Shown here: one piece after another, positions 13,986 to 19,462 of the stretch
Numbering within the stretch: position 1 is the stretch's first letter
Layout: the number at the start of each line of letters is the position of its first letter
Assembly: GCF_016026235.1 (NCBI RefSeq)
Contig: NZ_CP065613.1
Source of the DNA: Escherichia coli
GTDB lineage: Bacteria; Pseudomonadota; Gammaproteobacteria; Enterobacterales; Enterobacteriaceae
Strand: one strand, 5' to 3'
DNA length: 64,000 bases
Position numbers and translations under genes: made by a program
The notes under the pieces: model-generated
Seen by the model: only the letters and a program-made list of their open reading frames with translations
Databases searched by the model: none
Told to the model about the DNA's origin: nothing

Positions 13986-14993
13986 ATGACTGATAAAACC
14001 ATTGCGTTTTCGCTACTCGATCTGGCCCCCATTCCCGAAGGTTCTTCAGCGCGAGAAGCATTCTCCCACTCTCTCGATCTCGCCCGTCTGGCTGAAAAGC
14101 GCGGCTATCATCGCTACTGGCTGGCAGAACACCACAATATGACTGGCATTGCCAGTGCTGCCACGTCGGTATTGATTGGCTATCTGGCGGCGAATACCAC
14201 CACGCTGCATCTGGGGTCTGGCGGCGTGATGTTGCCTAACCACTCACCGTTGGTCATTGCCGAACAGTTCGGCACGCTCAATACACTCTATCCGGGGCGA
14301 ATCGATTTGGGGCTGGGTCGTGCGCCAGGTAGTGACCAACGGACAATGATGGCGCTGCGTCGCCATATGAGCGGCGATATTGATAATTTCCCCCGCGATG
14401 TCGCGGAGCTGGTGGACTGGTTTGACGCCCGCGATCCCAATCCGCATGTGCGCCCGGTACCAGGCTATGGCGAGAAAATCCCCGTGTGGTTGTTAGGCTC
14501 CAGCCTTTACAGCGCGCAACTGGCGGCGCAGCTTGGTCTGCCGTTCGCGTTTGCCTCACACTTCGCGCCGGATATGTTGTTCCAGGCGCTGCATCTTTAT
14601 CGCAGCAACTTCAAACCGTCGGCACGACTGGAAAAACCATACGCGATGGTGTGCATCAATATTATCGCCGCCGACAGCAACCGCGATGCTGAGTTTCTGT
14701 TTACCTCAATGCAGCAAGCCTTTGTGAAGTTGCGCCGTGGCGAAACCGGGCAACTGCCGCCACCGATTCAAAATATGGATCAGTTCTGGTCGCCGTCCGA
14801 ACAGTATGGTGTGCAGCAGGCGCTGAGTATGTCGTTGGTAGGTGATAAAGCGAAAGTGCGTCATGGCTTGCAGTCGATCCTGCGCGAAACCGACGCCGAT
14901 GAGATTATGGTCAACGGGCAGATTTTCGACCACCAGGCGCGGCTGCATTCGTTTGAGCTGGCGATGGATGTTAAGGAAGAGTTGTTGGGATAG
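13986..14993 (+). CDS. yhbW: Luciferase-like (FMN-dependent) monooxygenase family protein
   Basis: 335 aa in the position of K-12 yhbW; family assigned from memory of the K-12 annotation. Confidence 0.85.
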
Positions 14994-15009
14994 TGTGTCT
15001 TAACGCGGG

Positions 15010-15110
15010 AAGCCTTATCCGAGCTGGCAACGCTGTCCTACGTAGACCTGATAAGCGAAGCGCATCAGGCATTGTGTAGGCAGCAGAAATGTCGGATAAG
15101 GCACCGCTGA
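15010..15110. repeat. REP cluster
   Basis: gtagacctgataagcgaagcgcatcaggcattgtg plus flanking partial REP-like units between yhbW and mtr. Confidence 0.5.
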
Positions 15111-16355
15111 TTACTGATACACCGGCAGTAAATTAAAGCTCGATAAAATATGGACCAGTGCGTTGCCAACGCCAAACACCAGAATCAGCGTAATCATCGG
15201 CTTGCCGCCCCAGACGCGGAATTTCGGGCTGCCAAAGCGTTTACGCGATGCGCGGGCTAACAGCGCCGGAACAATTGCCGCCCAGATGGTAGCTGCTAAA
15301 CCAGCATAACCAATGGCGTACAGGAATCCGTTCGGGAACAGTAGACCACCCACAACAGGCGGGGCAAAGGTCAGCAATGCCGTTTTCAAGCGCCCCAGGG
15401 CTGAGTCATCGAAACCAAACAGATCTGCCAGATAGTCAAACAAACCCAGCGTTACGCCAAGGAACGAACTCGCTACCGCAAAGTTTGAGAACACGACCAG
15501 CAGAAGGTCCAGGCTACGGCTGTTCAGCACGCCGCTTAATGCCTGTACCAGCACATCAATATTACCGCCCTTCTCTGCAATACCGATAAACTCCGGACGC
15601 GGGATGTTACCCATCGTCGCCAGCAACCAGATGGTATACAGCGCCAGTGCCATCAGCGTACCGTACACCAGGCATTTCACGATGGTTTTCGGATCTTTGC
15701 CGTAATACTTCATCAGGCTTGGCACGTTACCGTGATAACCAAACGACGCCAGGCAGAACGGCAATGTCATCAGCAGATACGGCGCATAAGATGCATTGCT
15801 TTCTGCAACGTTGAACAATGTCGCAGGCTGCACATGCCCCAACAGGCTGCCAAAGGTGAGGAAGAAGGTAATGACTTTCGCCCCCAGCACAATCGCCGTC
15901 ATGCGGCTGACGGCCTTAGTACTCAACCACACCACAAACGCTACCAGCAGTGCAAAACCAAAACCCGCCGCCCGTGCCGGGACGTTTAGCGACATCTCTG
16001 CGAAGGTGTGATGCAGAATTGAACCACTGGCAGAAATATAGGCATAGGTCAGGATATAGAGCACAAAGGCAATGGAAATACCGTTGACCACGTTCCAGCC
16101 TTTGCCCAGCAAATCTTTGGTGATGGTGTCAAAACTCGAACCGATTCGGTAATTCAGGTTAGCTTCCAGAATCATCAAGCCGGAATGCAGCATACAGAAC
16201 CAGGTAAAGATCAGCGCCGCCATTGACCAGAAAAACCACGCCCCGGACATGACCACTGGCAGAGAAAACATCCCTGCGCCAATAATGGTGCCGCCGATAA
16301 TCACCACGCCGCCAAGCAGCGACGGTGACGTTTGGGTGGTGGTTAGTGTTGCCAT
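15111..16355 (-). CDS. mtr: Tryptophan-specific permease (HAAAP family)
   Basis: 414 aa polytopic transporter in the position of K-12 mtr. Confidence 0.9.
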
Positions 16356-16406
16356 GAGGGCTTCTCTCCAGTGAAAAATAGTGCGACTGCGTTGTTATGC
16401 ATTGCA

Positions 16407-16427
16407 CTGTACCAGTACACGAGTACA
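16407..16427 (-). promoter_or_regulatory. Candidate TrpR operator in the mtr promoter
   Basis: The minus strand reads GTACTCGTGTACTGGTACAG, a degenerate GTACTAGTT-AACTAGTAC-like palindrome, 50-70 nt upstream of the mtr start. Confidence 0.35.
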
Positions 16428-16431
16428 AAAG

Positions 16432-16467
16432 ACAAAAAAAAAGCCCCGATGGTAAAAATCGGGGCTG
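16432..16467 (-). terminator. Rho-independent terminator downstream of deaD
   Basis: Hairpin agccccgat/atcggggct followed on the minus strand by a run of about 9 T. Confidence 0.6.
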
Positions 16468-16483
16468 TATATATTATTTTACA
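16466..16483. promoter_or_regulatory. Candidate TyrR box upstream of mtr
   Basis: TGTATA-N6-TTTACA fits the TGTAAA-N6-TTTACA consensus. Confidence 0.35.
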
Positions 16484-16508
16484 GATTGTGTTCGCTGTTC
16501 AGCGATGA

Positions 16509-18398
16509 TTACGCATCACCACCGAAACGACGACGACCGGTAGAGTCATCACGACGCGGAGCGCGGCCTTCACGACGTTCGCCGCTAAAACGACGACCAT
16601 CACCACGGCCACCTTCACGGCGTTCACCGCTGAAGTTACGACCGCCTTCACGACGTTCGCCACCGAAACCACGACCACCGCCACGACGCTCACCGCCAGT
16701 ATGCGGCTGTGCATCGCCCAGTAACTGCATGTTCATCGGCTTGTTGAGAATGCGAGTGCGCGTAAAGTGTTGCAGCACTTCACCCGGCATACCTTTCGGC
16801 AGTTCGATGGTGGAGTGAGAAGCAAACAGCTTGATGTTACCAATGTAACGGCTGCTGATGTCGCCTTCGTTAGCAATCGCACCAACGATATGACGAACTT
16901 CAACACCATCATCGCGGCCCACTTCAATGCGGTACAGCTGCATATCGCCAACATCACGACGTTCACGACGCGGACGATCTTCACGGTCACCACGCGGGCC
17001 ACGGTCGTTACGATCGCGCGGACCACGGTCATCACGGTCACGGAATTCACGTTTCGGACGCATCGGCGCATCTGGCGGTACGATCAGAGTACGTTCACCC
17101 TGTGCCATTTTCAGCAGTGCCGCAGCCAGAGTTTCGAGATCCAGCTCTTCACCTTCAGCAGTCGGCTGAATTTTGCTCAGCAGTGCGCGGTATTGATCCA
17201 GATCGCTGCTTTCCAGCTGCTGCTGTACTTTAGCGGCGAATTTTTCCAGACGGCGTTTGCCTAGCAGTTCTGCGTTCGGCAGTTCTACTTCCGGAATAGT
17301 CAGCTTCATAGTACGTTCAATGTTGCGCAGCAGACGACGCTCGCGGTTCTCAACGAACAGCAGCGCGCGGCCAGCACGACCCGCACGACCGGTACGACCG
17401 ATACGGTGAACGTAAGACTCAGAATCCATCGGGATATCGTAGTTAACTACCAGGCTGATACGCTCAACGTCCAGGCCACGGGCTGCAACGTCGGTCGCAA
17501 TCAGGATGTCCAGACGACCATCTTTCAGGCGTTCCAGTGTCTGTTCACGCAGCGCCTGGTTCATGTCACCGTTCAGCGCGGCGCTGTTGTAGCCGTTACG
17601 CTCAAGAGCTTCAGCCACTTCCAGAGTCGCGTTTTTGGTACGAACGAAGATAATCGCCGCATCAAAATCTTCCGCTTCCAGGAAACGTACCAGTGCTTCG
17701 TTTTTGCGCATACCCCAGACAGTCCAGTAGCTCTGGCTGATGTCAGGACGGGTAGTCACGCTGGACTGAATGCGCACTTCCTGCGGCTCTTTCATAAAGC
17801 GGCGGGTAATGCGACGAATCGCTTCCGGCATGGTTGCAGAGAACAGAGCGGTCTGATGACCTTCCGGGATCTGCGCCATAATGGTTTCAACGTCTTCGAT
17901 GAAGCCCATGCGCAGCATTTCGTCAGCTTCATCCAGAACCAGACCGCTCAGTTTAGAGAGGTCCAGAGTGCCACGTTTCAGGTGGTCCAGCAGACGGCCC
18001 GGAGTACCGACAACGATCTGCGGCCCCTGACGCAGGGCGCGTAATTGCACGTCATAACGCTGGCCGCCGTACAGAGCAACCACATTTACGCCGCGCATGT
18101 GTTTAGAGAAATCCGTCATTGCTTCAGCAACCTGTACCGCCAGTTCGCGGGTCGGTGCCAGCACCAGAATCTGTGGTGCTTTCAGCTCAGGATCAAGATT
18201 CTGCAACAGAGGTAAAGAGAATGCTGCAGTTTTTCCGCTCCCCGTCTGGGCCATACCCAGAACGTCGCGGCCATTCAGCAGATGTGGAATACACTCTGCC
18301 TGAATTGGAGATGGTTTTTCGTAACCCAGATCGTTAAGGGCTTCAAGGATAGGAGCCTTCAGGCCCAGATCTGCAAAAGTGGTTTCGAATTCAGCCAT
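16509..18398 (-). CDS. deaD: Cold-shock DEAD-box ATP-dependent RNA helicase
   Basis: 629 aa from ATG (cat at 18396-18398); AQTGSGKT and DEAD motifs; RGG/ERREGG-repeat C-terminal tail. Confidence 0.9.
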
Positions 18399-18471
18399 GT
18401 AGTACGTGTGCCTCAAAATTAATGGCGGCCAGTCTACATAACTCATCATGAAATTGATCAGCAATTTTCAT
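18391..18471 (-). CDS. yrbN: Small upstream ORF (26 aa) overlapping the deaD start codon
   Basis: The minus strand translates to [26 protein letters not shown] with a stop overlapping the deaD ATG. This matches my recollection of K-12 yrbN, but the call is unverified. Confidence 0.45.
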
Positions 18472-18577
18472 TGAAAAGTGTGAACCGGCTCAAAGTAGGT
18501 GTATTAACGAACAACAACGCCCTCACCCGTTAAGGTGATGGCAATCAAAAAAGATTACGGGCTGATGTGTACGTCAG

Positions 18578-19462
18578 CTATTGCTGGTCCGATTCTGCCA
18601 GGTCATCTTGGTCCTGGCCCAGGAGCGATAATTCCAACAATGCGTATCGGTGCTCAACAAAGTTATGAACGTTGTTGGCAACCGCCAGTTTGAACAGTGC
18701 CGTGGCGCTGTCCAAATCCCCCAGACTTAGGTAGTACTTACCTAAATAGAAGTTGGTTTCACTGAGATGCTCAGCGAGCGAGGTGTTATCCGTTGCGTCC
18801 GCCTTGAGCCTTTCCATTAACGTTTGTTCGCTAATGTTGCCCAGGTAGAACTCGACAATGTTCCATCCCCACTGTTCCTTATCCGATTTTTCGAAGTGCT
18901 GTTTCAACACTTCTTTAGCCTGCTTCTCATCGAGCTTCTGCTCGGCGAGATAAAGCCACAGACTACGGAAAGGATCATTGGGATCGTCTTGATAAAACGC
19001 CAGCAGATCATCTTGCGCTAACTTGTCACGACCGCCGTAATATAATGCGATCCCGCGATTCAAGTGCGCGTAGTTGTAAGTTGGATCAAGCTCAAGTACA
19101 GAATCAAACGCTTCATAGGCAGCATCAAAATTGCCTGCCTGCGTTAAATATATGCCTAAGTAATTGAATACTTCAGGCATATCCGGTCGGATTGCCAGCG
19201 CTTGCGAAAAATCGTTACGCGCTAATGCCCTCAGACCGAGACTATCATACAACACTCCGCGCTCATATAAAAGCTGTGCGCGTTCGTCATCGGTTAAAGC
19301 CCGACTGGCAAGGATTTGTTCCATACGTGCCAGAATCACTTCCTGCTGTAAAGTCGGTTGCAATGGTACCGCGAGGACTTCACTTTTACGCCAGGAAGTA
19401 TTACTGCATCCTGCAAGCGTAAGTGCTGTCGCAACGAAACACCAGCGCAAAAAAGGCTTCAT
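18578..19462 (-). CDS. nlpI: TPR-repeat outer-membrane lipoprotein
   Basis: 294 aa; lipobox LTLAGC followed by TPR repeats. Confidence 0.9.

Follow-up and report, generated by a model that had tools for sequence, protein, structure and literature searches.

The window, that is, the whole 64,000-nucleotide stretch of Escherichia coli DNA that was analysed, carries on its minus strand an ORF ending at 16509, which is deaD (csdA), the gene of the cold-shock RNA helicase DeaD, and encodes 629 amino acid residues from an ATG at 18398. The NCBIfam DeaD equivalog NF008642 matched the protein with 1397.5 bits (cut-off 989), residues 1–629 being aligned to profile positions 1–628. Pfam gave the domain order DEAD (PF00270), Helicase_C (PF00271), DeaD_dimer (PF25399), DbpA (PF03880) and DeaD_C (PF12343). 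A 501-nt query over the 3′ end of deaD had matches in 5,425 of the 5,426 complete E. coli genomes, all annotated as deaD in RefSeq. ORFs of mtr and nlpI flank deaD in the window, and the RefSeq records examined have the same order, the context nlpI-yrbN-deaD-mtr being found there. The features are listed in Table 1.

Table 1. Positions of deaD, its C-terminal tail and neighbouring features in the window.
Feature	Position	Strand	Basis and remarks
deaD (csdA) CDS, 629 aa + stop	16509–18398	−	ORF list, NCBIfam NF008642, Pfam, RefSeq
YrbN, 26-aa small protein	~18391–18471	−	RefSeq
Arg/Asp-rich linker, aa 444–484	16947–17069	−	Between dimerization domain and RBD
DbpA-type RNA-binding domain (RBD), aa 489–558	16725–16934	−	Pfam PF03880, E 1.3e-20; AlphaFold2 beta-alpha-beta-beta-alpha-beta; directly upstream of tail
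C-terminal tail, predicted disordered, aa 565–629 + stop codon	16509–16706	−	Pfam PF12343, FoldIndex, AlphaFold2
Repeat unit 1, 11 residues, aa 568–578	16665–16697	−	Unit alignment; TRF period 33
Repeat unit 2, 11 residues, aa 579–589	16632–16664	−	Unit alignment; TRF period 33
Repeat unit 3, 15 residues, aa 590–604, 45 nt	16587–16631	−	45-nt repeat spacing (families D1, D3)
Repeat unit 4 + terminal segment, 25 residues, aa 605–629	16512–16586	−	Unit alignment
15-nt unit TGGCGGTGAGCGTCG (GGERR), then partial copy TGGCGGTG	16684–16698	−	One copy in window; allele DNA alignment
Site of +12 nt tandem duplication GTCGTGAAGGYG, adds GGRE, 633 aa	16643–16654	−	161 genomes (e.g. strain 042, PCN033)
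8-nt microhomology GCGTCGTG, first copy	16682–16689	−	Coding offset 17; bounds FXCREC035 deletion
8-nt microhomology GCGTCGTG, second copy	16550–16557	−	Coding offset 149; 132 nt from first
Spurious antisense ORF, 110 aa, Pro/Ser/Arg-rich	16486–16818	+	Mechanical ORF list
Spurious alternative-frame ORF, 71 aa, Val-rich	16499–16714	−	ORF list; frame read by frameshifted DeaD entries of public assemblies
Intrinsic terminator-like hairpin, then T9	16442–16466	−	43 nt 3′ of deaD stop; 9 pairs, 6 G-C, loop of 7, TTTTTTTTGT tail

Some observations concern the surroundings of the gene. YrbN lies just upstream of deaD with an 8-nt overlap at the deaD start codon. The mechanical ORF list starts deaD at a TTG at 18464, which gives 651 residues; RefSeq uses the ATG named above. 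The terminator-like hairpin separates deaD from mtr, which lies downstream on the same strand. It has A9 on one flank and T-rich sequence on the other, and so resembles a terminator whichever strand is scored. When the window strain was compared with the haplotype carrying the +15 tail allele described below (L007; window ~14172–19202), deaD had 10 mismatches in ~1.9 kb (0.5%) and the adjacent mtr 44 in 1.25 kb (3.5%). This difference suggests either a recombination boundary or far stronger constraint on deaD.

The first-pass annotation had taken the last roughly 65 codons of this ORF to be the deaD C-terminus, and the peptide which it quoted is present exactly in the ORF translation. Its interval of 16509–16704 was rightly located and ended 2 nt short of the codon boundary; counted in whole codons, the last 65 residues and the stop codon occupy 16509–16706. 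The tail is composed of 31% Gly, 29% Arg and 11% Glu, and its codons are mainly CGT (17), GGT (13), GGC (7) and GAA (6). Compared with the window, the O157 tail has four synonymous changes and one non-synonymous change.

The tail had also been described as repetitive, with degenerate DNA repeats, and the repeat analysis bears this out. Tandem Repeats Finder (TRF) reported a period of 33 nt with 2.9 copies, 71% matches and a score of 108 at 16602–16697, and a repeat search returned families of 20–42 nt with 33- and 45-nt spacing in the tail DNA. In the protein, four imperfect units, each starting with [G/S]GERR, follow the consensus [G/S]GERR[E/G]GGR..F. They had been called GGERREGG / RGG-type repeats; tandem repeats they are, but "RGG" is a loose label for a tail with one RGG and the unit given here. 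The best off-diagonal self-score of the tail protein was 91; residue shuffles gave 45.6 ± 8.2, and 2 of 2000 reached 91. For the tail DNA the score was 24; codon shuffles gave 12.4 ± 2.2, and 2 of 1000 reached 24. Both tests indicate that the repetition exceeds what Arg/Gly richness alone would give. At the DNA level the units are degenerate: pairs with 7–8 of 9 residues in common agree at only 21 of 27 bases, 3–4 of their codons being synonymous variants. This synonymous divergence indicates that the duplications are old and that the repeat has been maintained at the protein level.

Disorder of the tail, which had likewise been raised, is predicted by each of the approaches used. Pfam family PF12343, "DeaD helicase C-terminal disordered region", matched residues 568–629 over profile positions 1–62 of 62 (E 9.2e-12, 45.6 bits, gathering cut-off 23.3). 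The FoldIndex value of the tail was −0.505 vs +0.17 for the RBD, and its mean hydropathy (H = 0.276) was under the boundary of 0.457, which places it on the disordered side by the Uversky/FoldIndex criterion. Net charge per residue (NCPR) was moderately positive at +0.12, since Glu and Asp offset many of the arginines. In an AlphaFold2 model covering residues 443–629, built from an input alignment of 33 sequences, residues 564–629 had a pLDDT of ~41 and no secondary structure, and the RBD in the same model had a pLDDT of 70–85. The DeaD chains returned by a PDB sequence search (E at most 1e-20) were two, spanning residues 6–210 and 218–445 only, and the tail lies outside both. On these models the tail is predicted to be intrinsically disordered.

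A second low-complexity segment was observed, the Arg/Asp-rich linker on the other side of the RBD. It has short DNA direct repeats of its own (families D5, D6 and D8), a FoldIndex value of −0.73, a pLDDT mostly of 47–51 (below 50 in several stretches) and many indels between species.

To compare the tail between species, 33 C-terminal sequences from Enterobacterales and relatives were aligned. A protein database search with the C-terminal 165 residues returned mostly fragments, along with many frameshifted entries; the matches were filtered for the tail comparison and do not form a species-resolved set of orthologs. Within this alignment the tail ranged from 49 to 90 residues and was rich in indels, and the RBD was nearly invariant. 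In Klebsiella-like tails an additional GERREGGR unit was present and the APRRDD segment was duplicated; Yersinia- and Serratia-like tails were richer in Pro and Ala; the tail of an aphid-associated endosymbiont-like sequence (P0090) was rich in Asn, Lys and Ser. The motifs GERR and GGR and the terminal RRRFG(G)DA recurred in most of the compared tails. Judging from this alignment, what is conserved is composition and short motifs, not sequence, a pattern typical of functional disordered regions.

The first-pass annotation had expected tail length to vary between strains, and a comparison of 3′ ends showed that it does, but uncommonly. About 212 of the 5,425 complete genomes (3.9%) differed from the reference tail length, and ~96% kept it exactly. 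Four non-reference lengths were found, and every change was in-frame. The changes were micro-duplications of 12 or 15 nt or one large deletion, with no gain or loss of whole 33-nt units. It is between species that tail length varies widely.

The commonest variant was the 12-nt tandem duplication of GTCGTGAAGGYG. Its count was obtained among the 5,426 complete genomes as those with at least 99% identity to the +12 allele over 228 nt, and it agrees with the 163 genomes in the 90–95% identity band with the reference query. The 15-nt unit TGGCGGTGAGCGTCG, which is followed by the partial copy TGGCGGTG, was found in two tandem copies in 98193-type strains, giving 634 residues. At least two copies were present in 50 genomes, and within these at least one genome (CFIAFB20180511) had three, giving 639 residues. 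The +15 count came from a junction-specific 46-mer that is unable to seed on the reference allele; the whole +15 variant tail was uninformative as a BLAST query, as reference-length matches split into two 100%-identical pieces. In strain FXCREC035, the only such genome, a 132-nt deletion between the two copies of GCGTCGTG gave a protein of 585 residues that had lost 44 of the 65 tail residues. Several sequenced E. coli strains matched the window tail DNA itself over 216 nt with 100% identity.

Eight +15 carriers from China, Switzerland, Botswana, the USA, Galapagos and Panama, on four continents, were identical over 5,046 bp and had the common protein WP_064221452.1. One identical haplotype in all eight indicates that the +15 allele was inherited from one origin and is not recurrent. 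Repeated origin of this allele at a slippage hot spot was therefore rejected for the sample (8 of 8 carriers), and the sampled carriers are clonal in this sense. As a separate observation, NZ_CP042934.2 and NC_017626.1 are both labelled E. coli 042, yet they measure 4.69 vs 5.24 Mb and carry a reference-length tail and the +12 allele, respectively; one of the two is probably mislabelled.

Slippage of replication at direct repeats 8–15 nt long would account for the rare length variants. Traces of such slippage are the perfect tandem copies of the 15-nt unit (one, two or three), the 12-nt tandem duplication and the 132-nt deletion bounded by GCGTCGTG.

We consider it quite likely that the tail is a disordered, net-positive Arg/Gly/Glu segment of four old, diverged units that serves as an electrostatic arm for RNA, perhaps with a part in condensates, and whose variants come from slippage. 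The tail would hang from the folded DbpA-type RBD as a flexible arm, in which arginines would contact the RNA backbone non-specifically and phenylalanines could take part in base stacking. Such an arm would raise the local RNA affinity of the helicase and aid strand annealing, and its multivalent mixed-charge blocks may add to the salt-sensitive condensates of DeaD.

We infer RNA binding by the tail from the literature on DEAD-box C-terminal extensions and on the CsdA C-terminal regions (PMC3590231, PMC11850223, PMC11260450). The positively charged C-terminal domain of CsdA is described as the longest and is the proposed seat of the ATP-independent annealing activity (PMC3590231). In PMC11850223, which cites Xu et al. 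2017, deletion analyses treat a CsdA "C-terminal tail" as distinct from the RBD's RRM, and the RBD is given as the main RNA anchor. Removal of the C-terminal intrinsically disordered region (IDR) lowered the RNA affinity of RhlE helicases 7- to 65-fold (PMC11260450). In vitro, DeaD phase-separates in a salt-dependent manner, and condensates of it form in vivo; that work did not map the region responsible (PMC12758526). The only moderately positive NCPR (+0.12) counts against this reading. In addition, the clinical isolate without 44 of the 65 tail residues keeps an intact annotated gene, so that viability does not depend on the greater part of the tail.

A rather unlikely alternative is that the tail serves chiefly in protein-protein interaction and not as an RNA tether, for instance in docking to RNase E in the cold-shock degradosome, to ribosomal particles or to a regulator such as RraA. 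There is a precedent in RhlB, whose unstructured, positively charged C-terminal extension binds RraA (PMC3814787), and the retention of the terminal RRRFG(G)DA in many Enterobacterales would suit such a role. However, a specific docking motif would be expected to be conserved, and over most of the tail both sequence and length are conserved poorly; our literature search found no partner mapped to the tail segment.

That the tail evolves almost neutrally, as a low-complexity appendage under weak constraint with a composition set by mutation and slippage dynamics and not by function, is quite unlikely. The heavy turnover of length and sequence between species would fit this, as would the drift of the P0090 tail to an Asn/Lys/Ser-rich composition and the deletion of 44 residues in a clinical isolate. 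Neutrality accords poorly, however, with the persistence of the Arg/Gly-rich character and of the GERR, GGR and RRRF motifs across Enterobacterales, or with the exact tail length in 96% of E. coli genomes. Most tail substitutions are synonymous, and the synonymous divergence of the units shows a protein repeat that outlasted its DNA repeat.

A further proposal, which we regard as decidedly improbable, is that the lineage-specific in-frame alleles (+GGRE, +GGERR and the 44-residue deletion in one urinary isolate) are non-neutral and tune the RNA affinity or the condensate threshold of DeaD. If this were true, cold growth, ribosome biogenesis or antibiotic persistence would be altered in those clones.

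The occurrence of the 15-nt unit as a single, double or triple perfect copy might recall a contingency (hypermutable) locus, at which frequent copy-number change would switch or tune DeaD. We give this idea very little credence. Frequent recurrent copy-number change among close relatives, the mark of a VNTR or contingency locus, was not seen, just ~3.9% of the 5,425 genomes varying in length. All indels seen were in-frame, and the degeneracy of the units at the DNA level suppresses slippage. The single 5,046-bp haplotype and shared protein accession of eight +15 carriers from four continents point to inheritance.

The tail DNA is also open in other frames. The spurious long ORFs which the first-pass annotation had reported are there, among them the Pro/Ser/Arg-rich plus-strand frame of 110 residues (Table 1). 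Stop codons are absent from four of the six frames across the tail because CGT, GGT, GGC and GAA and their reverse complements make no stops. The open alternative frames and the repetitiveness of the DNA are thus passive by-products of the use of these codons. That the 110-residue plus-strand ORF or the 71-residue minus-strand ORF is a real overlapping gene has next to no chance of being right, although both are open over at least 70 codons: the RefSeq records examined annotate neither, the encoded products mirror the deaD codons and are of extremely low complexity, codon composition explains their openness, and variation tracks the deaD frame in the allele alignment. Both were therefore rejected as genes.

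Many database proteins from Logan and ENA assemblies were seen to be DeaD C-termini that switch in mid-tail into the Val-rich frame and close on a common 10-residue sequence (P0011–P0013, P0021, P0088, P0101 and others). These entries are either assembly or sequencing frameshifts or real mutants. In practice, gene callers and readers should disregard long alternative-frame ORFs in the deaD tail, as frameshift errors there yield plausible-looking Val-rich "proteins" that are already present in public databases.

The feature as such is already known and ordinary, a catalogued disordered tail with a Pfam family of its own. It is a textbook bacterial low-complexity, disordered helicase tail, of little import beyond correct annotation. 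The additions made here are modest, namely a list of the natural E. coli alleles that differ in tail length, and the finding that frameshifted versions of the tail are common in public assemblies. The natural allelic series, with tails of 21, 65, 69, 70 and 75 residues, offers ready-made variants for relating tail length to RNA binding or condensates.

With regard to known systems, the region matched by PF12343 in E. coli DeaD/CsdA is the same as the tail in the window, with no difference between them. Eukaryotic RGG/RG boxes (FUS, hnRNPs, LAF-1 and the tails of Ded1/DDX3) are, like the DeaD tail, rich in Arg and Gly, disordered and interspersed with aromatic residues, and they are associated with RNA binding and condensates. 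The DeaD tail differs from them in its one literal RGG, the lack of di-/tri-RGG spacing and its high Glu content (ERRE). Arginine methylation is typical of eukaryotic RGG boxes; it is not known for DeaD.

Under the definitions that Thandapani et al. are said to have given in 2013, di-/tri-RGG or di-/tri-RG denotes two or three motifs 0–4 residues apart. The tail has one RGG (residue 572), three GGR and three RG. The pattern RGG.{0,4}RGG was looked for in the tail and was absent, so neither di- nor tri-RGG occurs there, and the tail was rejected as a canonical RGG box. One di-RG (RGGGRG at 572–577) and no tri-RG were present, no more than a minimal match to the RG definition. On sequence grounds, then, "RGG-type" is a term that fits the chemistry of the tail and not its membership of the class.

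Closer likenesses are found among bacterial helicases. In Thermus thermophilus Hera and the equivalent parts of CshA, the order is the same as in DeaD: core, dimerization domain, RRM-like RBD and basic tail, with the RBD as the principal anchor for RNA (PMC11850223). The DeaD tail of E. coli is much longer than theirs, repetitive and of mixed charge (ERRE blocks). The C-terminal IDRs of RhlE1 and RhlE2 of Pseudomonas aeruginosa and the basic extension of RhlB are, like the DeaD tail, disordered and positively charged (PMC11260450; PMC3814787). These extensions raise RNA affinity, and those of RhlE drive phase separation (PMC11260450; PMC3814787). Their sequences differ from that of the DeaD tail and have no repeat unit in common with it; moreover, they join the helicase core directly, whereas the DeaD tail follows a folded RBD. 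By analogy, the role of the DeaD tail would be similar to that of the basic tails in Hera, CshA, RhlB and RhlE.
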